This document shows, piece after piece, positions 1,294-18,982 of a stretch of 24,000 nt of DNA. Under the pieces are notes generated by a model. The model was not told where the DNA came from, made no database searches, and was given only the letters and a program-made list of their open reading frames with translations. Both the position numbers and the translations under genes were made by a program. Origin of the DNA: Blastocatellia bacterium. Its GTDB lineage: Bacteria; Acidobacteriota; Blastocatellia; Pyrinomonadales; Pyrinomonadaceae. Within the stretch, counting starts at the first letter, position 1. Each line of letters opens with the position of its first letter. The DNA is taken from positions 1-24,000 of the forward strand of contig JAEUQK010000021.1 in assembly GCA_016789265.1 (NCBI GenBank). The letters run 5' to 3'.

Positions 1294-1329
1294 CGAATTT
1301 GTTTTGTAGAAAGGATAGCCGAAGATGAT

Positions 1330-2379: not shown

Positions 2380-2467
2380 TGATCTTTCCTCCTATTTGTC
2401 TGTTTTGGTTGTTTTTTAGTCGGTTCGCTTGACCGGAACCGGACGAGACTACCCTTTTGAGCGGCCG

Positions 2468-4288: not shown

Positions 4289-4371
4289 TATTTTTGCACC
4301 CCGTTCCAACGGCTCGGTGCCGCCGGTAAAGTGCCTTAGTTTCTTGCCAACTCCTCTCTTATCGCCCGTCT

Positions 4372-4557
4372 TTATTGTTCCGGCAGGGTTTGTCCCTGAT
4401 CCGGTTTCGACTCGAACAGTTCGTGAACACAGTCCCGGCACATCGGTTCGTCCGAAACCGGTACGAACCCCGCGCCGCAGCCTTCACAGTCACGTAACCG
4501 CTCGACGATAAAGTCGTGATCAATACCTGTGCTCTCTAAACTAGAAAGGGATATCAT
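4372..4557 (-). CDS. Small zinc-ribbon protein (61 aa)
   Basis: Two CxxC pairs (CEGC ... CRDC) spaced 13 aa apart. AGGAGG lies ~10 nt upstream of ATG 4557. It overlaps the upstream gene by 17 nt, which suggests operon coupling. Confidence 0.55.
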   Translation of the reverse strand: MISLSSLESTGIDHDFIVERLRDCEGCGAGFVPVSDEPMCRDCVHELFESKPDQGQTLPEQ

Positions 4558-4786
4558 CCTTGACGACCTCCTTTGTTACGGTCTCATCGATCCCGTTTGC
4601 TTCATCTCGCTCTCCGTTGGATTTCGGGTCGCGGATATTGAAGATAAGACCGGGATGGAAATCGAGCTTTAGGTTCAGACTTCCATCACGGCAGACATAC
4701 GCGGCACCGGCCATTCGCCAGAATGTCTGGCGGTTCGGTTCGACGCCGCGTTCTACGATCAGATATACGATCTTGTAATCCGACAT
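4541..4786 (-). CDS. 81-aa protein with an SSB-type C-terminal tail (…KDDIPF); possible minimal ssDNA-binding protein or SSB-tail mimic
   Basis: I verified the translation of the last codons: gag gtc gtc aag gat gat atc cct ttc tag = EVVKDDIPF*. An acidic linker (SNGERDEANGIDETVTKEVVKDD) precedes the tail. GAGGAGGAG sits just upstream of ATG 4786. Confidence 0.6.
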   Translation of the reverse strand: MSDYKIVYLIVERGVEPNRQTFWRMAGAAYVCRDGSLNLKLDFHPGLIFNIRDPKSNGERDEANGIDETVTKEVVKDDIPF

Positions 4787-4799
4787 GATCTCCTCCTCT

Positions 4800-5105
4800 C
4801 TAGGCTGCCTTTTTTAACGGAATGGGCGGCTCGGGCATCCCTTCCGGGCTTTCTCCGTTGCCGCTTGCGCCGTTCGGTCTAAGCTGAACCTGCTTTTCGA
4901 CATAACAGTAGGCACATTTGCCTGCTATCGAGAGATAGCAGGACTTACACACGGACTTTTCGCAGACCCGGCATCTTGTCCAGTTGCATTCCGGCGTCTC
5001 GATCGACGTTATGCAGACAAGGCGACCGAGCGACATAAAGTTTGTCTCGATCGCTCCTTTTAGCTCCCTGCCGCACCTGTGGCAGGAGCCAGTACGTGTT
5101 GACAT
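4800..5105 (-). CDS. Cys-rich zinc-finger protein (101 aa)
   Basis: Several CxxC pairs: CHRCGRE, CRVCEKSVCKSC, CAYC. I place the start at ATG 5105 (MSTRTGSCHRC...), because AAGGAGG lies 7 nt upstream. The track's 5186 start adds 27 lysine/asparagine-rich codons with no RBS. Confidence 0.55.
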   Translation of the reverse strand: MSTRTGSCHRCGRELKGAIETNFMSLGRLVCITSIETPECNWTRCRVCEKSVCKSCYLSIAGKCAYCYVEKQVQLRPNGASGNGESPEGMPEPPIPLKKAA

Positions 5106-5293
5106 ATCTAAGTTCCTCCTTATGTTTTTCTTTTTGTTTTTGTTCTCTGCGTTGCTTGCAGATCCCCCAGGGCACGAAGGGAACAAAGGTGCCTTGGGAG
5201 AACTGCAAACAAACGCGACAGGAGGAATAGGCGAAGAAAAAGCTAAATTAGCGAAAGTTAGCTGAGGAAGAAAGAGCCAAAAGAAGAATGGAA

Positions 5294-6502
5294 TTAAGCA
5301 GGCGGTAGTGTGACGGCGCTAAACGGCCTGGAAATTTTGCCGTCGATCATGAGCTTCAGATAGATGTGGTAGTTCGGCAGGTTTGTAAAATCCGAGAGTC
5401 TGAACTCGGGTGCAAACTCGGGCGCAAGAAACTCCGCGTCGTTGGCCCCGATCCGAAAGACGATGATGGTTCCGGCATTGCCAAGGATCGCATCCCTTAT
5501 TGTCGGTTCAAGCTGGGTCAGGTATTGGTGGGCAAGGACAAGCGAAAGACGGTATTTGCGGAGTTCGGAGAGCATAAAGATCAGGCTCTGCGTCGTGAAG
5601 TTATGGAACTCATCAAGGTAAAGCGTGAAATCCTTGCGCTCGGATTCCGGAATGTTTGCCCGACTCAGTGCTGCCAGATCGAAACGCGAGATGAGAAGCG
5701 AGCCAAGCAAATTGGAAGTATCTTCCCCGATGCTACCCTTTGCCAGATTGACAAGCAGTATCTTGCCCCCGTCCATTACGGAACGGAGATTCAACGGCTT
5801 TTCCGGGTTTGTAAGGATCTTCTGCAAAAGCGGGTGGGAAAGAAACGCTCCTACCTTGTTTTGTATCGGCGCGATCGCTTCTATGCGGAATCGTTCGGGG
5901 TACTTTTCATATTCATACAGCCAGAACTCTCTGACCTGTTTATTGCGGACGGATGCGACCACGATCCTCCGAAACGCTTTCTCATTGAACAATCTCAGGA
6001 TGTCCGACAGATTCGCGTCAGCATAATCGAGAAGGGCGATCAGGCAGTTGCGTAAGATATACTCCAGTCTCGGTCCCCAGGAATCGCTCCAAAGATGTTT
6101 GAAGACCTGGATCAGTCCCGAACACGCAAGTGCTCTTTTTGAGTGAGGGATCTGCGCGATCGGATTGAACCCATATGGCTGTGCGGGATCGGCGGCGTCA
6201 AAATCGATCAGATCGGGAATGCGGCCTTCAGGGATTTGTGATTTGACCCGCTTCAACAGATCGCCGTGCGGGTCAAGCAATGCGAAGCCGAGTCCAGACC
6301 GCATATCGTCGAGCATCATCGACTCCATCAGGGAAGATTTGCCGGTCCCGGTTTTCCCAAGCAGATACATATGCGCCCGGCGATCTGACTGCCTGATCCC
6401 AAAGGTCATCATCTCATTTCGGAAATTAGCATTTGCAAAAAGAGTGATGCTTTCATCACGGGATGCCGGATAATTCTGGAATTTTGCAAGGAGTTGCGTC
6501 AT
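5294..6502 (-). CDS. Soluble TraD/VirD4-like (type IV coupling protein / HerA-FtsK superfamily) P-loop ATPase
   Basis: Walker A LLGKTGTGKSS. Walker B-like FTLYLDEFHNF. AHQ motif LVLAHQYLTQL. There is no N-terminal TM segment. Its start overlaps the stop of the upstream wHTH gene (ATGA at 6499-6502). Confidence 0.7.
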   Translation of the reverse strand: MTQLLAKFQNYPASRDESITLFANANFRNEMMTFGIRQSDRRAHMYLLGKTGTGKSSLMESMMLDDMRSGLGFALLDPHGDLLKRVKSQIPEGRIPDLIDFDAADPAQPYGFNPIAQIPHSKRALACSGLIQVFKHLWSDSWGPRLEYILRNCLIALLDYADANLSDILRLFNEKAFRRIVVASVRNKQVREFWLYEYEKYPERFRIEAIAPIQNKVGAFLSHPLLQKILTNPEKPLNLRSVMDGGKILLVNLAKGSIGEDTSNLLGSLLISRFDLAALSRANIPESERKDFTLYLDEFHNFTTQSLIFMLSELRKYRLSLVLAHQYLTQLEPTIRDAILGNAGTIIVFRIGANDAEFLAPEFAPEFRLSDFTNLPNYHIYLKLMIDGKISRPFSAVTLPPA

Positions 6503-6948
6503 GGCGGTGAATACAATGGTCTTGCTCCGGCCAACCCTCTGCTATCACCACTAACCTGAAACCCCTTCCATTTCAAAATTGAGATCGTCACGTACCTCCC
6601 CGTTCGCTGAACCGATATATATCCTTTTTTCCTTAGCCTATTGAGGTGCAACTGTATGGTACGCAGCGAATAACCGGTGTCCTCGTGCATCGACAATTGA
6701 GTACGGCGAACTACACCGTTTTTGCGGTTTGAATACATTAACAAATACAGGTAAGTCCAAATGGCGGGGCCCATCGCCTGGCGGTGTTTGCTGTTAGGAT
6801 CAGCCACAAGGCCGCGCCAAACCGGTGACCACCAACTTGGCGGCTTTCGATACGCCTGATTCTCGGTTCGGCTGCCGTAGAGTGACGCCGACCGATTTCG
6901 TAGCAGGGAACCGGCGGTTCGAAATGAAGAATTGTTTGGTGAAGGCAT
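6499..6948 (-). CDS. Winged-helix DNA-binding protein (first gene of the backbone operon; possible Rep/regulator)
   Basis: The C-terminal 80 aa, WTYLYLLMYSNRKNGVVRRTQLSMHEDTGYSLRTIQLHLNRLRKKGYISVQRTGRYVTISI, fit the wHTH pattern (helix-turn-helix plus beta wing). It is translationally coupled to the ATPase. Confidence 0.55.
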   Translation of the reverse strand: MPSPNNSSFRTAGSLLRNRSASLYGSRTENQAYRKPPSWWSPVWRGLVADPNSKHRQAMGPAIWTYLYLLMYSNRKNGVVRRTQLSMHEDTGYSLRTIQLHLNRLRKKGYISVQRTGRYVTISILKWKGFQVSGDSRGLAGARPLYSPP

Positions 6949-6950
6949 AA

Positions 6951-6979
6951 AAGGTGAGGTTATTCCTTAATCTCACCTT
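6951..6979. promoter_or_regulatory. 8-bp perfect inverted repeat abutting the start of the backbone operon
   Basis: AAGGTGAG (6951-6958) / CTCACCTT (6972-6979) with a 13-nt spacer, 3 nt from ATG 6948. It could be an operator or a 5' leader hairpin. No functional evidence. Confidence 0.3.
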
Positions 6980-7342
6980 AACAGGATCGATTCAGACTCG
7001 GTAGGTTGAAAAAACCGACAGTTTTTTGGAAATCAGTCGGTAGAAAGACACTTTAGTTATTATTTTTTTATTTACTTTATAGCTAGTTCCGCTAAGCAGG
7101 GAAATAACCAATTTTAAGAGCGAATTTGTCTTTAGCCTAGCGACAAAAAGTGCAGATTTGTGAATCATCTACATGCAAAAATGAGGTTCTTTTCGTGCTG
7201 AATTTGCGACAAAAATCCCGGAATAGGGTGGTGTTCGGTACGTGCAGTGTAAATGTCAGTTATAATTTCGCGAGTTGGATTGTATTCAAGGAGAAATCGT
7301 TCCATGTAGTAATGTAACAGATTAAGGATTCGTGCGAGGATA

Positions 7343-7984
7343 ATGAATACTAAAACCGAGATAGAAGAGGGAAGAGTAAACAACGAACGACAATTCCATG
7401 TCATATATTTGACCGGCGCCCCAGCCTCGGGAAAGAGTACGCTGGTCGAACTGTTAGAAGGAAACTTTCAGCCCATGAAGACCTTTGTATACAGTCGCGT
7501 TTTGGCAGACTATTTAAGGGAGAAATCTGTTCGTCAATATTCACAAGATCACCTTCGCGAGAAGTCAGCGCAACTCATAACTCCCGACGATATAGAAATC
7601 GTGGATACCCGGCTTCTTGACTTCGTTACGGAGAATGCGAAAAAGGCTCATATTGTTATTGACTCGCATGCGGTAACCAAGGAAACGTACGGCTTCAGAG
7701 TGACGCCATTTTCGCTAGAACAGTTGAGGAAACTGAGTCCAACTCTAATTTTTGTCCTCTATACCGCTCCTTCCGTGATTTTGAACAGGATAAAGAATAA
7801 CAGTCAAGGCAGGCCGACCGTCTCGGAGTTTGAAGCCGGGTTTCATTCCGAGCTTCAAGCAACCGTTGCTTTAATTTACGGTATTCAGATAGGAATACCG
7901 GTATATTTCTTGGACAGTGACCGACCGTCTGATGATCTCGTAAGCGAAGTCGTAAAGCGAATTGAACGGGCTGCTGGAAAATAA
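7343..7984 (+). CDS. P-loop nucleotide kinase resembling archaeal-type adenylate kinase (AdkA-like)
   Basis: Walker A LTGAPASGKST. The order of blocks is as I recall it in archaeal AdkA: P-loop, then IVIDSHAVTKETYGFRVTPF (compare VDTHxxVxTPxGYLPGLP), then PTLIFVLYTAPSVILNRIKN..QGRP (compare LIxVxExxxxEILxRRxxDxxRxRD). GAGGA lies 2 nt (TA) upstream of the ATG. Confidence 0.5.
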   Translation: MNTKTEIEEGRVNNERQFHVIYLTGAPASGKSTLVELLEGNFQPMKTFVYSRVLADYLREKSVRQYSQDHLREKSAQLITPDDIEIVDTRLLDFVTENAKKAHIVIDSHAVTKETYGFRVTPFSLEQLRKLSPTLIFVLYTAPSVILNRIKNNSQGRPTVSEFEAGFHSELQATVALIYGIQIGIPVYFLDSDRPSDDLVSEVVKRIERAAGK

Positions 7985-8005
7985 CTGGAAGCCGAAGCAA
8001 TGTAA

Positions 8006-8650
8006 TTATGCGTGGTCATTTACCCGGCTTTTCGTTGTACGGCACACAGGGACCTCTTGGGCATTCTTTAGTATTACAAAATACGGTTCAATCAGTTCGG
8101 CAAGGATGGCTACATCGTACACTGACTCACTTTCCATCTCGATGTCTCTTCGCTCAACTATTGCCGTTACTTGAGATGCCGCAACCGGTCGTCCGGTTCT
8201 CAGGTTACTAAGCTGCTGAAAACCAATCGTGAATTTGCGTTGTAATGGAACTATTGGGGTTGCGCTGTAGCAAACGAGAGCGAAATGATGACGCTTCGGG
8301 GTTTCCGGGTCGAACCTGCTCGTTACAAGAGAGTGTCGGGGAATTGCAAACCTCCTTCCATCTATGGCTTCAGCCTCAGTCCACATGACAACAGCGGGAG
8401 GACTTACGTCCTTTTGTTTTGGCTCCGTCTTAATCGGGCTGAAGATCACTTGCGGGCGAGCAGTATGCTGCATTAGTTCAAGGATCGAAGGACCGATTGC
8501 GTTCCCGATTCCCCACATGAATATACCGCCGTTTGCCAACCTTTCTTTTTCTTTTCTATTGAGAATGTGTTCGACCGGCTCGGCAGCCTCTCCACCGAAT
8601 CTCGTCCAACAGAACAGGCGGGGCAGGCTTTCGACTGTTTGATTTTCCAT
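8006..8650 (-). CDS. Hypothetical protein, unrecognised family (paralogue 1 of 2 in this window)
   Basis: The 214-aa ORF has no recognisable motif. It aligns by eye with the 205-aa product of 10629-11246: HILNRKEKERLANGGIFMWGIGNAIGP vs DIIKRKTQEIEQTGYGLWGYGGSTCHP; IDGRRFAIP vs IDGLHWVAIP; HFALV vs RYALV; LAELIEPYFVILKN vs IAEIVEPYAVFVRN. Confidence 0.6.
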   Translation of the reverse strand: MENQTVESLPRLFCWTRFGGEAAEPVEHILNRKEKERLANGGIFMWGIGNAIGPSILELMQHTARPQVIFSPIKTEPKQKDVSPPAVVMWTEAEAIDGRRFAIPRHSLVTSRFDPETPKRHHFALVCYSATPIVPLQRKFTIGFQQLSNLRTGRPVAASQVTAIVERRDIEMESESVYDVAILAELIEPYFVILKNAQEVPVCRTTKSRVNDHA

Positions 8651-8686
8651 TTTTCTCAGTATGCATTAATATGCACTAGTATGCAA
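8644..8686. promoter_or_regulatory. Candidate back-to-back divergent promoters with a triple ATGCA repeat (candidate operator)
   Basis: Only 30 bp separate ATG 8650 (-) from ATG 8681 (+). On the plus strand, TTTCCA (8644-8649), a 17-bp spacer and TAATAT (8667-8672) end 8 nt before the ATG, implying a leaderless or near-leaderless XRE mRNA. On the minus strand, TTGCAT (8686-8681), 17 bp and CATACT end 7 nt before ATG 8650. The motif TATGCA occurs three times (8660-8665, 8670-8675, 8680-8685). Confidence 0.35.
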
Positions 8687-9016
8687 GAAGGCTCGTTTGC
8701 AGACCGACTTAAGGAGTTCATGGAGGCTAACCGCCTAACCCAGGAGGCCATTGCAAATGTAGCAAAGGTTAGCCAGTCATCTGTGTCGAGGGCTTTAAGG
8801 CGAAATTCAGTGCGGCATGGCAAGGCGGGCGCCAAACTATTCATTTATATGCAACAACACTTAAGCGCAGGCTTTGTAAGTCAGGGTAAAGGTAAGGTTG
8901 TTGAGGCCTTCGAGTCGATTTGGGATGGCTCGGAGGAACATGCGACGGCCATTGCTAGGATAATCAAGGCTTCTGATGGTTTACGGCCAGCCGAACATTC
9001 GAAGGAGGGCGACTAA
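8681..9016 (+). CDS. XRE-family helix-turn-helix transcriptional regulator
   Basis: From ATG 8681: MQEGSFADRLKEFMEANRLTQEAIANVAKVSQSSVSRALRR, a classic XRE/cI-type HTH. The track's earlier start at 8567 would overlap the divergent gene. Its stop overlaps the next start (TAATG at 9014-9018). Confidence 0.7.
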   Translation: MQEGSFADRLKEFMEANRLTQEAIANVAKVSQSSVSRALRRNSVRHGKAGAKLFIYMQQHLSAGFVSQGKGKVVEAFESIWDGSEEHATAIARIIKASDGLRPAEHSKEGD

Positions 9017-10026
9017 TGCTTCACGATGACGCCGCGACGTTTCGAAAACGACTAAGCGATCTAGGACTTAGTGACTCGGTTATTGATGCAGCGTGGCCGG
9101 ATTGGTGGAGCGACGACGCAGAGGCATCACCCTCAGCCCGTGCCGAACTGCGCTACTCCCTAGCTAGAAAGCTCGGATTGGAACCTCATTCCCTCCTCGA
9201 AGATAAGGAGATTCCGCGATTTATTTGGAAGGAGCCAGCTCAGTTTAAACATCTGTCCGGAGAAACTGATGGTGAGAAATGGGCACTGACCTCCTTCGGT
9301 ACTGCATTAGGCAAGATACTCCTGCGGGGATCTTCCACGCCGGCATTTCAAGGTACGAGGACTGCATTAGAATTCCGGGCAGCGATTCTGGGAAATCAGA
9401 CATATGTGCGATTCGTTGACCTTCTTTCGCTTTGTTGGTCCATCGGAATACCGACAGTGCATTTGCGAGTTTTTCCTCTTCCGCGGAAGCGGATGGCCGC
9501 GATGAGCGTGAGTGTGGGAACGAGCCATGCGATTTTACTCGGCAAGGACGCGCTCTATCCACCACAGATCGCCTTCTATCTAGCACATGAACTGGCCCAC
9601 ATATCCCTCAATCACTTGAAGGACAACGAAGTTCTGGTAGATCTGGAGCAAGATGTCCCCTCCGACTTACATGAGGAAATGGACTCGGAGGAAAGAGCTG
9701 CCGACGCATTCGCGCTAGAGCTTTTAACAGGAGTCCCGGACCCCGAAGTCGTCCCGATAGGACCGGGCAGTGGATCGCGCAGCCTCGCGAAAGCAGTACT
9801 GGACGCCGCCCCTGATCTTCATATTGAACCTGGCACGTTAGCCTTATGCTACGGCTTTTCCACCGGCGCTTGGGCGACCGCGATGGGTGCTTTGCCCTAT
9901 ATCTACGGAGCACCACGAGAAGTTTGGCGAGAGGTCAACAGTATCGCGCTAGAGCAACTCTCCCTATCTGCTCTTCCACTTGACACGACCCTCTATCTAC
10001 GAAAAGTCCTTGGCGAGGTGGGTTAG
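9016..10026 (+). CDS. ImmA/IrrE-family (COG2856) zinc metallopeptidase
   Basis: HEXXH motif in FYLAHELAHISLNH. The downstream third ligand/helix EERAADAFALELL is typical of ImmA/IrrE. AAGGAGGG lies 7 nt upstream. It is coupled to the XRE gene. Confidence 0.8.
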   Translation: MLHDDAATFRKRLSDLGLSDSVIDAAWPDWWSDDAEASPSARAELRYSLARKLGLEPHSLLEDKEIPRFIWKEPAQFKHLSGETDGEKWALTSFGTALGKILLRGSSTPAFQGTRTALEFRAAILGNQTYVRFVDLLSLCWSIGIPTVHLRVFPLPRKRMAAMSVSVGTSHAILLGKDALYPPQIAFYLAHELAHISLNHLKDNEVLVDLEQDVPSDLHEEMDSEERAADAFALELLTGVPDPEVVPIGPGSGSRSLAKAVLDAAPDLHIEPGTLALCYGFSTGAWATAMGALPYIYGAPREVWREVNSIALEQLSLSALPLDTTLYLRKVLGEVG

Positions 10027-10027
10027 A

Positions 10028-10672
10028 ATGCAAGTGCTCGTAGATAACGACATTTTGGTGAAAGGCGCCTGTTATGGCTTGTTCGAGGAGCTTTTTGGCC
10101 AGTCGTCGCAACACAATGAAGAACTGGGAGTCCTTGGGGCAGCAAAGTTTGTTGTTGCGAAAGCGATTCAGAGTATCCGGCTCCAGGGCGATCCTGAAAG
10201 AGGAATCGAAAGACTTAAGATTTTCCTTGAAAGATGCACCTGCGTGGAACCGACCGACGAGGAACAGAATCTGGCTGCCGAATTTGAGCTTCAGGCACAA
10301 CAAGCAGGTGTTGCACTGGATTCGGGTGAAAGTCAGTTATGTGCGGTGTTAATTGTGCGAGCACTTCCCTTGTTACATACAGGCGATAAACGAGCGATTC
10401 AGGCGTTGGAGGAATTGCTAACGTGCCATCAAAAGTTACAATCACTGTGCGGGAAAGTCCTATGTTTAGAGCAATTGGTCCTAAGCTGCACTTCAAAAGA
10501 AAATCTCAAGTTCATTCGCGCGGCTATCTGCTCAGAGCCCGATGTAGACAAAGCACTTTCTATCTCGTTCAGCTGTAAGAGCAAAGACACAACCTTTGAG
10601 ATAGTGGCGGAGGGGCTAAACAGTTACATCAACTACCTGCGTCAACAGGCTCCGCAGGTCCTTGCGAGCTAG
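10028..10672 (+). CDS. PIN-like domain protein (putative nuclease), third gene of the XRE-ImmA operon
   Basis: Starts at ATG 10028, 1 nt after the ImmA stop, with GAGGTGGG upstream. The N-terminus MQVLVDNDILVKG fits PIN strand 1 with an acidic residue. Later acidic positions also fit PIN topology: EEQNLAAEFE, LDSGESQLCAVLI and LLHTGDKRAIQAL. The assignment is from motif spacing only. Confidence 0.45.
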   Translation: MQVLVDNDILVKGACYGLFEELFGQSSQHNEELGVLGAAKFVVAKAIQSIRLQGDPERGIERLKIFLERCTCVEPTDEEQNLAAEFELQAQQAGVALDSGESQLCAVLIVRALPLLHTGDKRAIQALEELLTCHQKLQSLCGKVLCLEQLVLSCTSKENLKFIRAAICSEPDVDKALSISFSCKSKDTTFEIVAEGLNSYINYLRQQAPQVLAS

Positions 10673-11246
10673 GTATGCGATTACGGACGAATACAGCATA
10701 CGGCTCAACGATCTCGGCAATCAGCCCTATTTGGACGGTTCTCGCAGGGCCACGATGATCGTCATTGTCGGAAATCGTTAGACAGGCCTTGTCTACGCGA
10801 CCGCTGATGTATTTGCCTCCAGGTACCCCTAGACTGTTGCCCAACGCTACTGCTGTTCTATCGAGTGGCAATTTGAATTCTTCCCTGCGGAGGTCTTTGA
10901 TCACAAGAGCATAACGAGAACCACGTACATTGATAACTTTCGGTATGGCTACCCAATGCAAACCGTCGATGGAAAGTTCGTCCGCTCTTATGGGCTCGGC
11001 AAAGTGTTTGGACTCCATAGGCTCCATCGCTAAATATATTCGCCCGCCCTGTCGAGCATAGCCTTTCGCGAAGGGCTGGACCATTGTCTGAGGGTGGCAG
11101 GTACTTCCTCCGTAACCCCACAATCCGTACCCCGTTTGTTCAATCTCCTGTGTCTTACGTTTTATGATGTCCTCTAGGGATTCCTGAGCGTGAGTGCCGA
11201 CCTTCATGTACAGTACGCCTTGGCCAGGTGTAATGATGTTGCCCAT
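10629..11246 (-). CDS. Hypothetical protein, unrecognised family (paralogue 2), adjacent to the DUF43 transferase
   Basis: The 205-aa ORF has its ATG (11246-11244) directly next to the TAA stop of the upstream gene (11249-11247). It is similar to the 8006-8650 product (see that entry). Its 3' end overlaps the convergent PIN-like gene by 44 nt. Confidence 0.6.
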   Translation of the reverse strand: MGNIITPGQGVLYMKVGTHAQESLEDIIKRKTQEIEQTGYGLWGYGGSTCHPQTMVQPFAKGYARQGGRIYLAMEPMESKHFAEPIRADELSIDGLHWVAIPKVINVRGSRYALVIKDLRREEFKLPLDRTAVALGNSLGVPGGKYISGRVDKACLTISDNDDHRGPARTVQIGLIAEIVEPYAVFVRNRIPSSQGPAEPVDAGS

Positions 11247-12077
11247 TTATATAGACTCCAGTAATTCTAATTTGTATTCATCTTCGTGCGCCTTGCCGTA
11301 ATCCAAGCGTTTAATCTCGCGGACGTATCGCACCCGTGGAGGGGTCTCTGCCCCGTAGAAATTCTTCAATCGTTCCGGATCGGTGATTGCTTCGCTCGTC
11401 GACTTCGGCTTTGCGCCAGGTAGCGATTTGAAGAGAAGATTACACGACCGAAGATCAGGTGCGTCGTCCAAATGGTAGGAGTGTAGGCGCGACGCCATCT
11501 TCTGCACGAAAAAACCTCTACAAATCGCAAACTCCTGGACATTAGCGAGAACTTGTTTCGCCCACTCCCGCTCGGGGTCATCGGCAATGACGACCAGCCC
11601 TTCGCCATCATACGATATAGCTTCCATACCACGTTCCATGAAGACCTTGACGCTTTCTCCGGCATTGCTTGCCCCCCATGGCGGGTTAGTGTAAAAGCAG
11701 TCAAAATCGAAGGGTCCGGGAAACGGCTCTAGGCAGTTGTATAGGACCGCACTGAGATTGTCGAGCCGTTCGCTGTCCGCAAAGCGTTCCACCGCCGAGC
11801 AAATCCGCTCGTCGAAATCGAAGAGGGTGATTTGAGATGGCCCACGGTTTACGATCCCACGGGCATACAAGTATGCGACACAAACACTAATCGCGTCGCC
11901 GTCGCCGATAAAGGCGAGGCGATTTCCGTTTGCCCAGCGAGCCACCAGCTCACTCTGAAGAAGCATGTCGCCTGCCTTCATGTAAATCTGGTCGAACTCG
12001 CGCAGAGGCCGGGGCCGATTTTGCACGACATCGGAGATTGCGTTTATTGCTGCTCTAAGATCAATGTCTTCCGGCAT
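11247..12077 (-). CDS. DUF43 / BpsA-family (branched-chain polyamine synthase-like) SAM- or dcSAM-dependent transferase; start uncertain
   Basis: Family blocks: NRLAFIGDGDAISVCVAY (compare GDDDLTS), ITLFDFDERI (compare VxDIDER) and FDCFYTNPPWG (compare TDPPYT; also the N/DPPY/W motif IV of amino-methyltransferases). I give the conservative core from ATG 12077 (MPEDIDLRAAINA...). The ORF stays open to ATG 12125 and TTG 12260. No SD precedes any of these. TATACT (12094-12089) lies 11 nt upstream of ATG 12077. Confidence 0.6.
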   Translation of the reverse strand: MPEDIDLRAAINAISDVVQNRPRPLREFDQIYMKAGDMLLQSELVARWANGNRLAFIGDGDAISVCVAYLYARGIVNRGPSQITLFDFDERICSAVERFADSERLDNLSAVLYNCLEPFPGPFDFDCFYTNPPWGASNAGESVKVFMERGMEAISYDGEGLVVIADDPEREWAKQVLANVQEFAICRGFFVQKMASRLHSYHLDDAPDLRSCNLLFKSLPGAKPKSTSEAITDPERLKNFYGAETPPRVRYVREIKRLDYGKAHEDEYKLELLESI

Positions 12078-12457
12078 TGCGACTGTCGAGTATACAATTA
12101 TTGTCCGCCAACGAAAAATCTCCATCTGCGCGGCCGTAAGAATTGAAAAGCCTCCTGATAGCCCGACAGAGAATGTCCCCGGCCTCAGTCCAGCCTTTTT
12201 CCCGATCGCTCGTAGATCCCTTCTTGGTTTCCCCACAGAGGTTGCGGATGGCGGGGTCAAATGGGCGGCGAAATGGACGCCGGCCAGATAGATGCGGACC
12301 GACGGCGCGAGAGGGCACTCCGGCGTACCTACTATAAAGATCTCTATCGTATTCGACCTGGTATGCTCAGATGATTCTGGAACTGACTTAAGAGTTTGTT
12401 CAGCCTCTAAGGGAACTCACTTGATAGTCATCACGGAAAATAGATCTAACTCCTCTA

Positions 12458-13627
12458 CTAAACATGACCCAAACTCGCGGTTAGGGCAGGCCTTCCCGAA
12501 AAAAAATCGTCAACTCGGGCTGTCAATTCGGACTTTTCCACCTCAGTTGCAAAGCTCGCGGAGATACTTTGGCTTGTAATCCTTCCCATACCTTCGACTG
12601 TGATAATCCCGGACTTAATCAAGTGTAAGAATTCATTGGATAGTGTAGTCGGCCCCAATAACACAGGGTCGTCAGTGTTGATTGTCACGCACAATCCCTT
12701 TTCCAAAAATTCCTTGACCGGATGATCGACGAAGGACCGTGCTACGCTCAGAATGATATTGCTAGTAGGACAGATCTCCATCGGGATCCGCAGTTCAGCA
12801 AGCGTGGCAAGAAGCTCCGGATCGTTGACCGCTCCAATCCCGTGTCCAATTCGGTCGACCTTGAGCTTGTCCAACGCTTCCCAAACTGATTTTGGATTGC
12901 CTGTCTCCCCCGAATGGACCGTTAGCGGGATACCCGCTGACTTTACGATCTCGCAAAAGTCTTGAAATAAATCGTTTGAATACCGATCTTCGTTTCCAGT
13001 GAGGTCAAGGCCCACAACAATATCTCGATTCGTAAGCGTGGACTCCGCAAGCTTCTGAAACCTGCGGCGGCGATCCGCAAGATCTCCCCACCGTTCGATG
13101 ACGCCACTGCGCCCAACACTGAGGATAATCTTGGCAACAGTCTTCGGAAAATCACGCCGGGCCACCTTTACCCCGGTTCTTATTGCATCGATGTATTCTT
13201 CGAGAGAAAGTGGAAGCAACGGGTTAAATTCTCTACTGTTCGGAGCAACACGAAATTCGACATAAATCACACCATCACGAGCCGCATCGGCGATTCCCCA
13301 ATATACGGCGTTATGAATGCCTCTCGGATCAGAAAATATCCCCTTGAAACCTGCCCAAATTCTTTTCCTTAGAAAATGTTCGTACCCATTTGGAACAGGT
13401 TTCGATAAGACGGAAGCTCTAGCTATTCTCTTAGGATCATTACCGAAACCGTTAAGTGTAATATTAAGCCTATTTGCGATATAGACGAGTACTTCTGGAC
13501 GAATTGATCCCACCAAATGCCGATGAAGATCAACTTTGGGTATTTCCGTTAGGGTACTCAGCGAAACACCGTCGAACGGCAATTCATGGGTTCCAATCGA
13601 TGGGTAGAAATCAAGCGGATGTGACAT
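12458..13627 (-). CDS. Adenosine/adenine-nucleotide deaminase (ADA family, PF00962-type)
   Basis: All canonical ADA metal and catalytic motifs are present: VDLHRHLVGS (HxH), LTVHSGE (HxGE), DRIGHG and VTINTDDP. The 389-aa ORF starts 5 nt after the stop of the upstream membrane-protein gene. Confidence 0.85.
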   Translation of the reverse strand: MSHPLDFYPSIGTHELPFDGVSLSTLTEIPKVDLHRHLVGSIRPEVLVYIANRLNITLNGFGNDPKRIARASVLSKPVPNGYEHFLRKRIWAGFKGIFSDPRGIHNAVYWGIADAARDGVIYVEFRVAPNSREFNPLLPLSLEEYIDAIRTGVKVARRDFPKTVAKIILSVGRSGVIERWGDLADRRRRFQKLAESTLTNRDIVVGLDLTGNEDRYSNDLFQDFCEIVKSAGIPLTVHSGETGNPKSVWEALDKLKVDRIGHGIGAVNDPELLATLAELRIPMEICPTSNIILSVARSFVDHPVKEFLEKGLCVTINTDDPVLLGPTTLSNEFLHLIKSGIITVEGMGRITSQSISASFATEVEKSELTARVDDFFSGRPALTASLGHV

Positions 13628-13632
13628 AGGAA

Positions 13633-14682
13633 TTACCGATTCTCTTCTGCCTTAAGGCCCGAAGCAAAGCTGTCACCAATCGCGTCGATCAATTCTGACG
13701 ACTTGCCTGAATATATTAGAGCATCACAGACTGGCTGAAAAATATCAAACCAAAATTGAACTAGGGACTGTTGAAAATATCCTCGACGCTCGGTTGCGTG
13801 AACCGTGAGCACCCCATAGACTTCACTTATTTTTTCTTTTGGAAAGTCGGCCACGGCTGGTACACAAATCATTGAAGCATAGTCTTTCTTTTGCCCGGTT
13901 CTCATCTCCTCGAACTGAAGATCCTCACCACCATTCTCGCAGACTATTGGCTCACGTTTTGCCCAACATTTTCCCGCCGCTCCTTCGTTTAGATCAAATT
14001 TTGGAGTCTTCGGTTCGCCCTCGTTCGGGAATGCTCTATACCTCTTCTCGAGTATGTCAGGTCCATTCTCTTGTGAGGTAACCGCGTAGAAACTTACGCC
14101 CATCTTGTCGTTATTCTCCCCGTCGGCATCCTTTGGTTTCTTGAAGATGTCCTCTTTTAGGATCTGCGAAACGCGACCTAGCGCCTGCTTCACCTTTTCC
14201 CTTCGAATATTGTCCGCCTGATTCAAAGCAGTTCTAATACTGTCGATATTCACATTTTTGCTCTCGATCAAACGTCTTAATTCGACGGTGAGACTATAGT
14301 TAGCCCTGTAACGTTCCCGAATGAAATCCGCCACGACATCGGGCATCGTACGACGCAGATGATTGTATCGATCCTGTTTCTCCAGTTCCGCTTTGAGTTT
14401 ATCGTTCTCGGCCGTCAACTCACCTCTGAGAATGTCCATGGCGCTCTTTGACACTCTATTACTAATCGCACGAAGCAAGGCAACAATGATTATGCTCAGC
14501 AATACTAAAAGCAACACCTGAACCCAGCCGGGTGCGGGCTTTACGGCTTCGTGTCCAAATGCAACAAGTAGTGCAATTAGTAAATGGGATGCCACACTTA
14601 GGAGGTTATCAAGTTTCATACAATTGTCACTCGACTGATTCTTCGAAGCTAAACGAAGCGATGAATCCTTAGCTATTCTCAC
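13633..14682 (-). CDS. Membrane protein: 2 TM helices, coiled coil and a C-terminal GAF-like domain
   Basis: TM segments LLSVASHLLIALLVAFG and WVQVLLLVLLSIIIVALL. Heptad-like RGELTAENDKLKAELEKQDR. The C-terminal ~150 aa fit a GAF pattern: NEGAAGKCWAKREPIVCEN ... YASMICVPAV ... VYGVLTVHATERRGYF. The track start at 14682 is GTG; the alternative ATG at 14619 (MKLDNLL...) is equally possible. Confidence 0.5.
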   Translation of the reverse strand: MRIAKDSSLRLASKNQSSDNCMKLDNLLSVASHLLIALLVAFGHEAVKPAPGWVQVLLLVLLSIIIVALLRAISNRVSKSAMDILRGELTAENDKLKAELEKQDRYNHLRRTMPDVVADFIRERYRANYSLTVELRRLIESKNVNIDSIRTALNQADNIRREKVKQALGRVSQILKEDIFKKPKDADGENNDKMGVSFYAVTSQENGPDILEKRYRAFPNEGEPKTPKFDLNEGAAGKCWAKREPIVCENGGEDLQFEEMRTGQKKDYASMICVPAVADFPKEKISEVYGVLTVHATERRGYFQQSLVQFWFDIFQPVCDALIYSGKSSELIDAIGDSFASGLKAEENR

Positions 14683-14879
14683 GCTAAATATAGATTTGAC
14701 CTGAAGTTACGTCAACCCCTGGTCGTTTCCAACTATTCGATTACGAACCAAAGCTTCAGAGTTACAATCTTCGCGGTAATCCGCAGACCGATAACTGAGA
14801 AATCTTCCGTAAGCTCCCCTTAAGAACATACAGATCAAAAGCAGACGTTTTCTTTCATCATGGAGGATGGAGGAGACGG

Positions 14880-14951
14880 ATGAAAAGGTCGAGATTTAGT
14901 GAGACGCAGGTGGTGGCGATCTTGAAGGAAGCGGAGGCTGGGAAGGCTGTA
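14880..14951 (+). pseudogene. Remnant of an IS3-family transposase orfA (first ~24 codons only)
   Basis: MKRSRFSETQVVAILKEAEAGKAV matches the conserved N-terminus of IS3-family OrfA (MKKSRFTExQIxxILKEAEAG...), with GGAGGA upstream. After codon ~24 the reading frame becomes AT-rich with no resemblance. A possible IS3-type terminal sequence, TGACCTGAAGTTACG, starts at 14697 (low confidence). Confidence 0.5.
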
Positions 14952-15252
14952 ACGAAAAGATACATTAGGAAAAAAAGCGCTTGTAAGATGTCAACGACGA
15001 ACAACTCGAACTCAATGGATTTCGCACATACTCAAAAAAAGAGGAAGCATCCGATGGACACTTCCGTCTATTCTTCCGTTCATGAGAACAGTTTTCAATG
15101 GGAATAGGGATCTGTTTCCCCACACAGCCGAAGGTGTGGAGTATTTATCAAAATAGACATCGGCCAAGCCTGCTTCTCTCGGGCCAACCGGGCTGCTGCT
15201 CGGCAAAAACCCGCGGTATCTCAAGATCCAAGAGTTATAGAAATCTTCTAAT

Positions 15253-17091
15253 TCACCCAGCTTTCAATGGCGCCAGTTCGCCTGCGTCAATGATGAGCGG
15301 GCCCTCGATGAAATCCTGTCCCAACCCCTCACTGGGTGTTATCGCGGGCGTATCCTGACCAGCATTCGGGTCGCCATATTCGGGATTATGTTTCCAGTGA
15401 TCACGTTGCGGTGACTTGTCTATTCCAATCGGGTAGATCGTCAGCTTATCACCCTCGATCTTGAGCCTGAGAAAATGTCGATAACTGTCGAGCCGAAGAG
15501 CGCTGAACGCACCGTTGGAGTGATCTCCCCAGAACCAAGAGGCGGTGGTCAGGTAAAGTCCCCATAAGAATCCGCCGACAAATCCCAGGACTATCATTCC
15601 AGCAAGAAATCCAAGAAAATTAAGCATTTCGCCAGCTGTATAGATTGATTGGATTCCGAAAAAATTAAGCAGCGTCGAAACCATCGCAGTTCCGAATAAG
15701 ACCATAGCAACATGAACCAAGCCATGAAGGCCTCCAATGAAGACCCTTCGCCGCCTTGAGCTTATTTCGGCCGATAATATAAATACGATCGGAAGCAAAA
15801 AAAAGATAATTAGGAACACGGGCGACGATGCAAGAATTCGAACCTGGTTCCAGTAAAGATTTAAGAACGTATCATTCTCGCCCACGGCAGCGTATCCGCT
15901 CCACGCCAACATCGCTAAGGCACAGATGCAATAGAGGCCCGCGAGTAGAAAGCAGAACTCCCAGTTCCGCCCAGGAAATCGGATGTTCCCGAGGGCAAGT
16001 CTTCTGCTTGCGTGTTTAGGTGGATAAAAAGCCCTTGTAGCACCGTCAGTCCCTATCCCTACCTCGAGCGTATCGAACTCGCCTTTGATGCCCGGCCACT
16101 TTGCGCTTATTGTGTCGTTTAGATGATGCGTTGGGTGGAGAAATGCACCCCCACCGCCGGCAGTGATGAAATTCGTTCCTGTTTCCTTGCTGACATAGCG
16201 ACTGTAGTGATGAAGGTCACCTGAGATAACCAGCGGGACCTTTGCATTTGGGCACTCATCGTGAAGGATTTTAGCGATGTAATGTAGAGCCCTGTAGTAC
16301 TCTTCCTGTCCTTTTTTGTCGCCCGCAATATCGGCCTTGAGCCAGGTTGGAACCGATGCGCAGAGAATGATCTTTGCACCAGGCCGCATCTTCTTCGCCA
16401 CAGCGGCAAAGTAATCCGCCTGAGGCGCGTCAATATCCTCACCCAACTGCGAATCGAATCCCCAGATCCACCAGTTCTGTCCTAAGTGAATTGCAAAGTA
16501 GCTTCGCCGTTGCGACGCGATCCAGCTTCCCAAACTAGTAGCGCGCCCGCGACAAAAGTTAGCCAGGAAGAGAGTGAGGCCATCATACCAATCATGATTG
16601 CCGGGTATGAGATAGAGTTTTGGATGATCTCCGTTTCTTTCGTAAGGAAATGCAGCCCGATAAGGAAGCTTCATCCGCACTTCATATTCGTCCCGGCTGG
16701 CGTCCGGGTAAACTTGGTCACCGCCCATTATCAGACAATCGGCTCGCGGCAAAGTAATATCGCCGACGGGTAATTGCTTTTGGCCGATCATATAAGCGAT
16801 CGCATACGTTGAATCGAAACCGTCGCCGAGATCCGCGACGTAATCCACCCAGATCTCTTGCTTGCCCCCGCATAAACCGTCTTCGCCACGACAGCAATCT
16901 TCGATCAGCGTATCGTGATTGATCGGCGAATCGAGAGCAGCGTGAACTAGTCTCCGGTCCGCGTACTGTCCAAACAGTGTTGAATCAATTACCTTTTTGG
17001 CGGTTTTTGCCAACACGAGTGGGCTAAACCAGTGAACCATTCCGCGGTACTCACTCGAATCATTCAGGTCTGGGGGGTATTTTCTTTTCAT
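15253..17091 (-). CDS. Calcineurin-like metallophosphoesterase with a C-terminal multi-TM domain
   Basis: MPE motifs appear in order: VADLGDGFDS, IMGGDQVYP, IPGNHDWYDG, SGDLHHY, GGGGAFLHPTH. At least four hydrophobic helices follow (e.g. FLLAGLYCICALAMLAW, VFLIIFFLLPIVFILSA, LNFLGFLAGMIVLGFVGGFLWGLYL), then a soluble tail. Confidence 0.8.
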   Translation of the reverse strand: MKRKYPPDLNDSSEYRGMVHWFSPLVLAKTAKKVIDSTLFGQYADRRLVHAALDSPINHDTLIEDCCRGEDGLCGGKQEIWVDYVADLGDGFDSTYAIAYMIGQKQLPVGDITLPRADCLIMGGDQVYPDASRDEYEVRMKLPYRAAFPYERNGDHPKLYLIPGNHDWYDGLTLFLANFCRGRATSLGSWIASQRRSYFAIHLGQNWWIWGFDSQLGEDIDAPQADYFAAVAKKMRPGAKIILCASVPTWLKADIAGDKKGQEEYYRALHYIAKILHDECPNAKVPLVISGDLHHYSRYVSKETGTNFITAGGGGAFLHPTHHLNDTISAKWPGIKGEFDTLEVGIGTDGATRAFYPPKHASRRLALGNIRFPGRNWEFCFLLAGLYCICALAMLAWSGYAAVGENDTFLNLYWNQVRILASSPVFLIIFFLLPIVFILSAEISSRRRRVFIGGLHGLVHVAMVLFGTAMVSTLLNFFGIQSIYTAGEMLNFLGFLAGMIVLGFVGGFLWGLYLTTASWFWGDHSNGAFSALRLDSYRHFLRLKIEGDKLTIYPIGIDKSPQRDHWKHNPEYGDPNAGQDTPAITPSEGLGQDFIEGPLIIDAGELAPLKAG

Positions 17092-17133
17092 AACATATTA
17101 TTCAGATCAGGGTATTAAGAACCGACCTCAAAG

Positions 17134-18360
17134 TTAGTGGCCGGAGCGGGTGAATCGCAGAATCTCGATATTCCCCGTTCTGGTTACGCAGATGCGATCT
17201 TTCTGCCGCTCCTCCGGGAGGCCTGTCGATACTGTGGCCCGCGCGGAGGACGTCGCATTGGAAACGCGGTTCAAGCGCACCGTGAAGTCTCGAAAGAACT
17301 TTCCGATGAACAGCCGGCTAGGATCAACATAGTTGACAGGATCGTTCGCACGGTACGTGTACAAGTTCAAGGTCTCCCGTTGGACTGTCGCCCGACAAAT
17401 TGACTCCAGGTTTTGTTGAGATGCTGTTGCTTCAGTTTCCACAGGAACGTGGGCAAGAGCGCCGCTGTGCGAATTCGAGACCGCTTTCGCCGTCCTTCTC
17501 GTAACCGGTGTAGCCTTTCCGAACCTCGTCATCGCCGGACGTGTAACCGATGCCGCTGACCCTTGCCGAAGTAACTATCTCATCGCCAAATGCCCCGTAA
17601 TCTTTCCTATCCTTCACCGCACCAAGCTGATCCGTCACAAGCCGCGTGCTGCCAAGATGATCGGTTGTCAAATAGCTTGTTTGCGGACTCTCAGACGTTT
17701 GAGTCGAGTACTCAGCCACAAGTTGTCCGCTTCCATTGTAAATGAAAATGGTGGTCTCTGTGCCCGCGATCTTCTTTACTCTTTTTCCGTCCCCGTCATA
17801 GCGGTATTCGCCGATCGTCGTGTCCTGATCGTTCTGTACCTCGATCTGATGGTTCTCGGCGTCGTATATGAAATCCTTTCCTTCGGCATCGCCCGTAACG
17901 TTACCCGCCGCGTCATATTGCCAGCCGCTGCTTGTGAAGCGGTTTGTCGAGGTCGAGATCGTGGGGTTGCAGATCGCCTCCGTGCAGCTTCCGAGAGTGG
18001 TGGTGTTCGAAGCATCGTAACGACGGTTGCCGTAACGGTCCATCGTGAATGTCTGCTTCCAGGTCTGGCCGCTGTTGATCGTCTCAGTCGCGGAGAGAAG
18101 GCGATTCAGATCATCATAGGTATAGGTTTGTGTAGCCGTAAAGCCGTTTGTCGTCCCGACGTTCGGAACCGTGATCTTTTGTTCCCTCAAACTCCCGTTG
18201 TTCTTTGTATTGTTTCCGTAACCTAGCTCAAGCTTCAGAAGATTCTGGCTGTTCGGACCAAGCCCGAGCCCGATCTGTGTGACCTGTCCGCGGGTGTTGT
18301 ATAGGGATGTTTCCCAGCGTCCGTTGCCAAGCCGCATCGCTGTCACGGCCCGTCTGGCAC
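17134..18360 (-). pseudogene. Orphan RHS C-terminal cassette (YD repeats, core end and a 58-aa tip), with no N-terminus and an interrupted frame
   Basis: ORF 17432-18346 aligns with the last ~330 aa of the main RHS core. MRLGNGRWE matches LRLGNGLWE, QTWKQTFTMDRYGNR matches QTWKQGFGYDRYGNR, DQDTTIGEYRYDGDGKRVKK matches DQDTTIGHYYYDGEGRRVKK, and GYEKDGESGLEFAQ matches GYQKDEETGLDFAE. It then hits TGA at 17432-17434. The core-end motif LNLYTYRANDPVNYVDPSRL is in another frame (ORF 17134-17532). No start codon or RBS lies at the 5' homology boundary (~18360). Confidence 0.7.
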
Positions 18361-18390
18361 TGGTTTTGTTCGTAGGCTTTCCGATTCTGA

Positions 18391-18963: not shown

Positions 18964-18982
18964 GTACACCTCCTACTACACT

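Follow-up and report, generated by a model that had tools for sequence, protein, structure and literature searches.

A six-gene cassette joining an XRE-ImmA-PIN block to a BpsA_C-like transferase and two paralogous proteins, with a separate adenosine deaminase/GAF membrane protein pair as its neighbor, in a Blastocatellia bacterium

ImmA-like proteases have been described as gates or antitoxins of bacterial conflict systems (PMC10440598; bioRxiv 10.1101/2022.04.27.489752), and in NetFlax the ImmA-domain antitoxins of Rosmer are linked with PIN-like toxins and are enriched in phage defence (PMC10440598). An XRE-family regulator, an ImmA-type protease and a PIN nuclease are encoded side by side in a 24,000-nucleotide (nt) stretch from a metagenome-assembled genome of a Blastocatellia bacterium (Acidobacteriota; assembly GCA_016789265.1, contig JAEUQK010000021.1, positions 1 to 24,000; hereafter the window), together with a transferase related to BpsA and two paralogous proteins, here called ParaA and ParaB. 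Nine genes lie between positions 7343 and 14682, and the initial annotation had proposed that they work together on an adenine nucleotide. It was found instead that they form two independent mobile modules: a six-gene cassette (transferase, ParaA, ParaB, XRE, ImmA, and PIN), to which a kinase gene is added in some loci, and a pair encoding an adenosine deaminase (ADA) and a membrane protein with a GAF-like domain (GAF-TM), which adjoins the cassette only in this genome. Neither module has been described in the databases and literature that could be searched. The genes and sites concerned are as follows.

7343 to 7984, + strand: P-loop nucleoside monophosphate (NMP) kinase-like protein, 213 amino acids (aa); facultative seventh gene of the cassette
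8006 to 8650, - strand: ParaB, 214 aa; diverged paralogue of ParaA
8660 to 8685: three TATGCA repeats in 10-bp phase in the ParaB/XRE intergenic region; putative XRE operator
8681 to 9016, + strand: XRE-family helix-turn-helix (HTH) regulator, 111 aa (HTH_31, E value of 7e-6)
9016 to 10026, + strand: ImmA/IrrE-type zinc metalloprotease, 336 aa, its start overlapping the XRE stop (Peptidase_M78, E value of 1.9e-5)
10028 to 10672, + strand: PIN nuclease of VapC fold and putative effector, 214 aa, its C-terminal extension rich in Cys (AlphaFold2 [AF2] and Foldseek)
10629 to 11246, - strand: ParaA, 205 aa; directly adjoins the transferase gene and shares 44 bp at its 3' end with the 3' end of PIN
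11247 to 12125, - strand: predicted BpsA_C-like transferase dependent on S-adenosylmethionine (SAM) or decarboxylated SAM (dcSAM), starting at 12077 (276 aa) or 12125 (292 aa) (BpsA_C, E value of 1.7e-16)
12146: recombination breakpoint, the end of blastn similarity to sister elements and the boundary of the two modules
12458 to 13627, - strand: ADA-family enzyme, 389 aa; second gene of the GAF-TM/ADA module
13633 to 14619, - strand: GAF-TM membrane protein, 328 aa, partner of ADA; contains two transmembrane helices, a coiled-coil region, and a GAF-like domain

All nine open reading frames (ORFs) were confirmed where they had first been placed, with the starts of XRE, PIN, transferase, and GAF-TM revised from gene calls on identical public contigs; for the transferase, this moves the start to 12077 or 12125 from 12260. 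The domain calls first made for these proteins also held, by hidden Markov model (HMM) matches for the kinase, ADA, the DUF43/BpsA-family transferase, XRE, ImmA, and the GAF-like domain, and by an AF2 model searched with Foldseek for PIN.

The nine window proteins were compared by tblastn with 84 related loci. A pattern scan over a collection of 185,579 species genomes, one genome per species, detected 136 encoded relatives, and 80 loci were fetched; their hosts belong to the Acidobacteriota, Alpha-, Beta- and Gammaproteobacteria, Actinomycetota, Chloroflexota, and Dormibacterota, at least five phyla in all. Transferase, PIN and ParaA (53 to 77% identical across phyla) were each found in 84 of the 84 loci, ImmA in 82, and ParaB in 80, with absent core genes coinciding with short or truncated contigs. 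XRE, a short and divergent protein, was detected in 45 loci and the kinase in 19, while neither ADA nor GAF-TM was found in any of the 84. The recurrence of the neighborhood, proposed at the outset as a check, is therefore borne out for the two Para genes and the DUF43-like gene with XRE, ImmA, and PIN, and fails for ADA and GAF-TM. The six core genes are one unit, co-localized far beyond chance, and the cassette they form is mobile and widespread. ORF calling in the compared loci was naive; all-against-all clustering of the ORFs gave no further recurrent family, and a 309-aa "ParaB-XRE fusion" (cluster c9) proved to be an artefact of the calling, in which XRE is spuriously extended antisense to ParaB. 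The five large core proteins co-vary in identity among 78 loci (Spearman coefficients of 0.59 to 0.83), with medians of 68% for the transferase, 58% for ParaA, 48% for ImmA, 43% for ParaB, and 41% for PIN. The faster divergence of PIN, ParaB, and ImmA than of the transferase and ParaA would fit an invader-facing effector arm beside a constrained enzymatic arm.

In the usual gene order, which is that of the window, transferase and ParaA are read toward the oppositely oriented genes XRE, ImmA, and PIN, and ParaB lies beyond XRE and divergent from it. Alphaproteobacterial loci have ParaB as the first gene of a ParaB-ImmA-PIN operon, either without XRE or, in sphingomonads, with a MerR-type gene; loci of this second type are characterized by an XRE gene that is absent or replaced by the MerR-type gene. 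On plasmid p1 of P. koreensis, the order is transferase, ParaA, and kinase in one direction, followed by ParaB in the opposite direction and, divergent from it, XRE, ImmA, and PIN. These variant orders define two sub-blocks, one of transferase and ParaA with or without the kinase and the other of ParaB with XRE, ImmA, and PIN, and rearrangement of the sub-blocks leaves the cassette together both on p1 and in the type-2 loci. One paralogue, ParaA, is tied to the transferase and the other, ParaB, to the protease/nuclease block. The idea of a variable slot in the operon, on the 5' side of the transferase, was dropped, as this position is empty in most loci and only the kinase recurs there.

The separation of the two modules rests on the absence of ADA and GAF-TM from all 84 cassette loci, on a sharp breakpoint at position 12146, and on the recurrence of the pair elsewhere without the cassette. 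By blastn, window positions 4541 to 12146 are 92 to 98% identical to three sister elements (L085, L086, and L087), and nothing matches beyond 12146, which lies 21 to 69 bp upstream of the transferase start; a gap of 332 to 380 bp separates the ADA stop from that start. Past this point, the sister elements have a ThiF gene, a gene of 170 aa, and other cargo in place of ADA and GAF-TM. In L085 (positions 12119 to 16045), where ThiF is of 268 aa, genes for another M78 peptidase, a methyltransferase of 717 aa, and an ATPase of AAA_15/AAA_21 type follow further along, and the region beside the cassette looks like a cargo hot spot.

GAF-TM and ADA are adjacent in five of five independent contexts (L089, L090, L091, L095, and L096, with an ADA fragment in L090), and no cassette genes were called in these five loci. 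The two proteins diverge together, at 30 to 61% identity for ADA and 36 to 73% for GAF-TM, and in two of the five contexts a PurA-like adenylosuccinate synthetase homologue adjoins them. The PurA homologues of L089 (3300 to 6999) and L096 (5492 to 9564) are 38% identical to each other, and L096 also holds a 101-aa PurA fragment. The pair is found twice in mobile settings beside TraG-like genes, in the window and in L091. An unannotated gene cluster beside GAF-TM/ADA on the TraG-bearing element of L091 (9141 to 13062) encodes a kinase of AAA_17 type (314 aa), a protein of 424 aa that weakly matches N6-adenineMlase, a protein with faint similarity to radical-SAM enzymes, and small unknowns.

ADA matches the Pfam family A_deaminase over its full length (E value of 2.7e-67) and scores 227.8 against the cut-off of 216.55 for TIGR01430; its HxH, HxGE, GHG, and TDDP motifs align to the solved ADA 6N9M and are intact, as the initial annotation had stated. 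GAF-TM matches GAF_2 with an E value of 2.7e-5, which is under the Pfam cut-off, and its homologues carry PF13185. The GAF-TM family numbers 12 proteins in 5.8 billion, and a metagenome scan with GAF-TM peptides gave no relatives. The pair probably couples ligand sensing at the membrane to an altered pool of purine nucleosides or nucleotides, which may serve either conflict or salvage.

To our knowledge, the family to which the cassette transferase is related has been known only from archaeal and thermophile polyamine synthesis. The transferase scores 60.7 bits against the cut-off of 27 for Pfam BpsA_C (PF01861, DUF43) and matches BpsA from the Protein Data Bank (PDB) (5XNC, E value of 1.7e-9), but it aligns with residues 128 to 317 of 371 only, lacking the N-terminal 120 or so residues, and it has TNPPW with a four-residue insertion where BpsA has TDPPE. 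The GDGD, DFDER, and TNPPWG motifs are invariant, TNPPWG in 27 sequences, and mean column identity across phyla is 69%. In amino-methyltransferases, a (D/N/S)PP(Y/F/W) motif positions the planar amino or amide group of adenine (N6), cytosine (N4), or glutamine. The PADLOC model mad2 (HsdM-like) matches the transferase with an E value of 4.4e-8, over the catalytic core only; no Pfam match of N6_Mtase type was found at an E value of ≤0.1, and no region resembling a target recognition domain (TRD) was found in the 276-aa protein. The link to adenine suggested for the enzyme would come only from its predicted use of SAM or dcSAM and from the NPPW motif. ParaA always lies 3' of the transferase, with a gap or overlap of 0 to 1 nt. 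In one locus from the Pyrinomonadaceae (L001, 7934 to 9172), the transferase start is overlapped over 8 nt by a dGTPase-like (HD/HD_assoc) gene encoding 412 aa, which could be an extra operon member or a neighboring defence gene of dNTPase type.

The kinase matches AAA_17 (E value of 9e-11) and the archaeal AdkA model PRK04040 (E value of 1.5e-10), the latter with 41 bits against a cut-off of 155, so the AdkA match shows a kinase fold only. Its inclusion in the same system stands only in part, for the gene is facultative, being present in 16 to 19 of 82 to 84 loci (approximately 20%) and missing from about 80%. Where present, it is always 3 to 120 bp away from the core, on the 5' side of the transferase or past ParaB. 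A second operon, divergent from the main cassette, was identified in L052 (5666 to 8816), where a HipB-like XRE gene is followed by a HipA kinase gene, a BpsA_C-like transferase gene whose product is 60% identical to that of the window, and a Para gene. The HipB-HipA-transferase-Para operon occurs beside an OLD-family nuclease in four Sphingopyxis/Sphingobium loci (L052, L061, L064, and L065), and its HipA-type kinase fills the position held elsewhere by the P-loop kinase.

ParaA and ParaB had been described initially as divergent paralogues of a family that could not be placed, and they are true paralogues as judged by BLASTP (E value of 1e-4) and by hhalign comparison of the two family alignments (probability of 95.8%, E value of 8e-9). 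ParaA has more than 2,293 homologous clusters; at 50% identity the Para family comprises 453 clusters, nearly all of stand-alone proteins of 175 to 200 aa, and among these 453 representative clusters eight of the longest listed members had no Pfam domain that would indicate a fusion. No match to ParaA or ParaB was found in Pfam, PADLOC, or NCBIfam (for ParaB, Pfam matches in 0 of 28 members), and a ParaA profile search of PDB sequences returned nothing. The AF2 model of ParaA reached a predicted local distance difference test (pLDDT) score of 82, and Foldseek searches with it against PDB and BFVD gave nothing, with best E values of 0.68 and 0.13, respectively. A YTH fold was considered and rejected, as the weak Foldseek matches to it have TM scores of ≤0.2 and are noise. 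Many polar residues are invariant in ParaA; five of them (H19, C50, H51, H81, and C155) are not found in ParaB and may form a metal site. Both proteins have a Gly-rich loop (WGYGG or WGIGN) between a strand and a helix. The overlap of the ParaA and PIN 3' ends is 44 bp in the window (10629 to 10672) and 4 bp in L001; this convergent arrangement leaves no space for a terminator and may allow antisense control or interference in transcription. A distant Para homologue (E value of 9.5e-27 to the ParaA profile) lies in L097 (6326 to 10253) between a reprolysin-like zinc metalloprotease of 546 aa and an RCC1-repeat protein, with an AAA_15/AAA_21 ATPase and a recombinase near and no BpsA_C gene; it is another link of Para with a metalloprotease. 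The context of a further Para family member (P0395) was uninformative.

In the effector block, the XRE and ImmA genes overlap by a single base (9016). In addition to Peptidase_M78, ImmA matches the models capP (E value of 7e-7) and Lit (E value of 3.5e-5), and its HExxH motif is kept, with H191, E192, and H195 invariant among 25 sequences. PIN matched no HMM in Pfam, PADLOC, or NCBIfam, and its profile found nothing among PDB sequences, but an AF2 model built from 27 homologues (pLDDT of 93.4) gave VapC/PIN structures as all of its top 31 PDB matches in Foldseek, with a probability of 1.0 and TM scores of 0.6 to 0.74. Invariant acidic residues (D6, D8, E79, D98, and D120) and cysteines (C168 and C183) are present, together with an insertion and a C-terminal extension of about 70 aa that contains cysteines. 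Both ImmA (phrog_18577, E value of 5e-46) and PIN (PHROG family 15597) have full-length matches to phage protein families. A phage origin of the cassette was nevertheless rejected, as no ImmA homologue was detected among INPHARED phages and ParaA was found on only two IMG/VR contigs. Within the 30-bp gap between ParaB and XRE, TATGCA occurs at 8660, 8670, and 8680, and the last copy overlaps the XRE start codon at 8681, which suggests a leaderless XRE transcript or one with a very short leader. ATGCA- or ATTCA-like repeats are found at the same position in loci of several phyla; of 72 loci, 25, belonging to several phyla, have two or more copies of ATGCA within 40 nt there, where 0.02 to 0.05 would be expected. 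These repeats are probably the XRE operator.

The cassette is found on five plasmids (from Agrobacterium, Rhizobium, Sinorhizobium, and Pseudomonas), and many further loci are chromosomal, beside restriction-modification (R-M), TIR, or prokaryotic Argonaute (pAgo) genes. The flanks of 46 loci contain resolvase, integrase, TniQ/Tn7-like, and type IV secretion system (T4SS) genes and, mixed with ordinary genes, type I and II R-M, Mrr, pAgo-TIR, and TIR genes; OLD genes also occur in the flanks. Cultured hosts belong to Agrobacterium, Rhizobium, Sinorhizobium, Pseudomonas, Xanthobacter, Paucimonas, and Duganella; among them are A. tumefaciens LN-1 (plasmid pLN1-233332, cassette at 18.3 to 23.2 kb), P. 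koreensis P19E3 (plasmid p1, 240.9 to 245.9 kb), and Xanthobacter flavus 301.

In the window, the cassette follows a backbone (1 to 6948) that is common to the window and the sister elements and that encodes a 657-aa ParB_N/HTH_ParB protein, a 402-aa TraG-D_C/TrwB-like ATPase, a 149-aa winged HTH (wHTH; HTH_36/RepL-like) protein (6499 to 6948), and a Cys-rich protein of 128 aa. The initial view of undescribed conflict-type genes carried as cargo by a mobile-element-like backbone agrees with the ParB, TraG-like ATPase, and wHTH genes found here. The narrower label of a backbone like an integrative and conjugative element (ICE) is plausible but unproven, as no relaxase, integrase, or T4SS gene was found within the window. 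Two further features border the nine genes.

6949 to 7342: AT-rich spacer between the backbone wHTH gene and the kinase, 37% G+C against 50% for the window
14880 to 15107, + strand: short ORF, possible IS3 orfA remnant, its first 21 or so residues IS3 OrfA-like by eye

The low G+C content of the spacer had been noted initially and is confirmed, with 14 G+C of 60 in the segment from 7021 to 7080. The ORF at 14880 had been called an IS3 orfA remnant; a likeness to IS3 OrfA is visible, confined to approximately the first 21 residues (MKRSRFSETQVVAILKEAEAG) and judged by eye, and Pfam gave no match. The best-scoring promoter-like site in a promoter/terminator scan lies 5' of GAF-TM (14715 to 14687, - strand), but it is a weak hint only, as the scan as a whole showed no excess over the shuffled expectation. 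Beyond these features (15253 to 23992), the window encodes a 612-aa calcineurin-like phosphoesterase with C-terminal transmembrane segments, followed by an RHS/YD-repeat locus with a 1669-aa protein and a 304-aa YD-repeat fragment. The two RHS/YD genes flank a 192-aa ORF (18391 to 18969), a possible immunity gene; this polymorphic-toxin cargo is unrelated to the cassette.

We tentatively favor, at somewhat less than an even chance, a reading in which the six genes are a self-contained conflict cassette with two arms and ADA/GAF-TM is a separate pair; that the cassette has a function in conflict is, taken alone, somewhat more likely than not. Its operation is inferred at every functional step, the gene content, co-occurrence, folds, motifs, repeats, and breakpoint being the observations on which it draws. 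XRE would repress its own operon and ParaB by binding the phased TATGCA repeats. By analogy with ImmR/ImmA, CapH/CapP, and RosmerTA, the ImmA-type protease would hold the system or release it on sensing an invader, and the control by XRE would then be lifted. The PIN nuclease would cut RNA, or possibly DNA, and so halt either the infected cell or the invader. In the other arm, the transferase and ParaA may write a mark on a conserved nucleic acid or make a modified nucleotide or amine, with the kinase as an optional helper of this arm and a HipA-type kinase in its place in the sister module. ParaA and ParaB would be subunits that recognize one and the same target or ligand, the former serving the transferase and the latter the effector arm. 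The transferase product would license or restrain the PIN nuclease, coupling the arms through ParaB; such a coupling of writer and reader is doubtful. A still more specific form is unlikely, namely, a widespread, so far undescribed immune system in which the BpsA-type transferase marks a nucleic acid or a nucleotide with an unusual N-alkyl group (aminopropyl, perhaps), and in which a new fold, that of the Para family, guides the writer as ParaA and reads the mark as ParaB for a PIN nuclease gated by the protease; if true, it would be a self/non-self logic built from parts new to defence.

Several observations weigh against this two-arm reading. No PADLOC model recognizes the cassette as a system, and the two Para proteins have no detectable fold or family match in the databases searched, so that their role as recognition subunits is pure conjecture on our part. 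As XRE is absent or replaced by a MerR-type gene in type-2 loci, ImmA may not act on XRE. The closest solved relative of the transferase, BpsA, acts on a polyamine and not on nucleic acid, and the identities of the transferase (68%) and ParaA (58%) are far above those usual for R-M specificity modules, which speaks against the marking of specific DNA sequences. What the flanks give is a plain list of defence genes, mixed with ordinary ones. For the neighboring pair, ADA meets the housekeeping TIGR01430 cut-off and the PurA neighbor could mean ordinary purine salvage.

Other explanations were weighed against the same evidence. That all nine genes make, modify, or deplete an adenine nucleotide through kinase, ADA, and transferase, with GAF-TM and/or PIN as effectors, would be in keeping with their contiguity, seen here and also across more than 250 sample blocks from this lineage, with the intact ADA motifs and the NMP-kinase fold, and with an NPPW motif typical of adenine-N6 enzymes. 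Co-occurrence brings this model close to refuted, and it is now highly improbable: ADA and GAF-TM are missing from every cassette locus and recur without the cassette, the sister element that is 92 to 98% identical has ThiF and the 170-aa gene past 12146, the gap between ADA and the transferase is 332 to 380 bp, and the kinase is facultative. Just as improbable is a housekeeping role in polyamine synthesis (by the BpsA-like enzyme) and purine salvage (by ADA) with vertical inheritance. The NCBI annotations "bis-aminopropyl spermidine synthase family protein" and "adenosine deaminase" point that way, as do the TIGR01430 score of ADA and the PurA homologues beside ADA/GAF-TM in two contexts. The 136 detections made in the 185,579 species genomes are, however, scattered over at least five phyla with ParaA at 53 to 77% identity, and the cassette lies in mobile and defence contexts. 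Its transferase has no BpsA N-terminal domain, carries NPPW and not DPPE, and is invariably linked to PIN and ImmA, and the GAF-TM family has 12 members only.

Two further alternatives are unlikely, each to a similar degree, yet far less so than those above. The cassette may be an addiction or stabilization module of toxin-antitoxin (TA) type, with PIN as toxin, ImmA (with or without XRE) as antitoxin, and the transferase and Para proteins as a second toxin and antidote or as modulators. Its presence on plasmids and on Tn7-like and ICE-like elements would suit such a module, as would the BpsA_C-Para pair inside a HipBA-type operon and the ImmA-domain antitoxins with PIN-like partners in NetFlax (PMC10440598). 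Many loci are chromosomal, beside R-M, TIR, and pAgo genes, however, and six conserved genes exceed the needs of addiction; roles in TA and in defence are compatible with each other. Alternatively, the transferase, ParaA, and sometimes the kinase may make a small molecule (an N-alkylated nucleotide, for instance, or a polyamine of unusual kind), which ParaB would bind to control ImmA and PIN, or which would itself poison invader replication. The products of viperins poison invader replication in this way. Consistent with a signal or antimetabolite are the alkylation of a small amine with dcSAM by BpsA, the closest solved relative, the NMP-kinase-like fold of the kinase, the stand-alone Para proteins with a strand, Gly-rich loop, and helix as in many nucleotide-binding sites, and the HD/HD_assoc dNTPase-like gene overlapping the transferase start in L001. 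Unlike sensors of the CARF/SAVED type, however, ParaB is never fused to the effector; about 80% of loci lack the kinase, those of HipA type are protein kinases, and the cassette contains no cyclase or synthetase-type signal generator.

If functional, the two-arm cassette would be a new multi-gene architecture among bacterial conflict systems. It extends over several phyla and more than 2,000 clusters of ParaA proteins, it brings in the Para family, which is without detectable relatives, and its presence in cultured strains makes it directly testable. ADA/GAF-TM, alone or together with PurA, is another small candidate, for conflict biology directed at purines, and the locus illustrates how neighboring cargo in a variable region can be taken for a single system.

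For the ADA/GAF-TM pair, the closest comparisons are RADAR and Cad1 (CARF-ADA), in which an adenosine deaminase fold likewise stands in a mobile, conflict-like setting by a putative sensor; here the partner is a GAF-like protein with two transmembrane helices. The initial annotation was right to set both systems aside. There is no RdrA match in the window, and ADA scores 33 bits against a cut-off of 800 for the RdrB model NF041744; the PADLOC Cad1 model (PDLC01908) aligns over profile positions 253 to 595 of 605, the ADA part only, and the 389-aa ADA has no CARF domain.

For the cassette, RosmerTA (RmrA/RmrT) similarly pairs an M78 metalloprotease and an HTH with a variable toxin. HTH and protease are joined in one RmrA protein, whereas the cassette XRE is a separate 111-aa gene product that is absent or MerR-replaced in some loci; RmrA models do not recognize the cassette protease (E values of 0.011 to 0.057, with 0.0018 for XRE), and the cassette has three further conserved genes, those of transferase, ParaA, and ParaB. 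CapH/CapP, associated with CBASS, and ImmR/ImmA of ICEBs1 resemble the cassette in having adjacent genes for an XRE repressor and an M78 protease and phased palindromic repeats at a divergent promoter region. The capP match covers only profile positions 35 to 112 of 242, and capH gives an E value of 0.012; the cassette protease, at 336 aa, has conserved extra N- and C-terminal regions, and the regulated cargo differs. VapC has the PIN fold (TM score of about 0.7) and conserved acidic residues in common with the cassette nuclease, which differs in its length of 214 aa with insertion and C-terminal extension and in matching no Pfam PIN model, and where VapBC has a small VapB antitoxin upstream, the cassette has the 336-aa ImmA-like protease.

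On the side of the transferase, BpsA (PDB 5XNC and 6J27) has a homologous catalytic domain with a GD(G/D)D motif, but the cassette enzyme lacks the N-terminal domain, has TNPPW with four extra residues and not TDPPE, belongs to a mobile conflict context, and invariably comes coupled to ParaA. N6-adenine and N4-cytosine DNA methyltransferases have the (D/N/S)PP(Y/F/W) motif in common with it (TNPPWG). R-M-like systems and MADS combine, as the cassette does, a transferase, a nuclease, an HTH protein, and sometimes a kinase, whereas the cassette has no TRD and its transferase is of BpsA_C type; of the eight MADS genes (mad1 to mad8), it gives matches only to mad2 (E value of 4.4e-8) and mad1 (E value of 0.023), short of the full set. 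The cassette thus compares best with HTH/ImmA-gated toxin systems, to which it adds a transferase-plus-Para arm that is without precedent among them.

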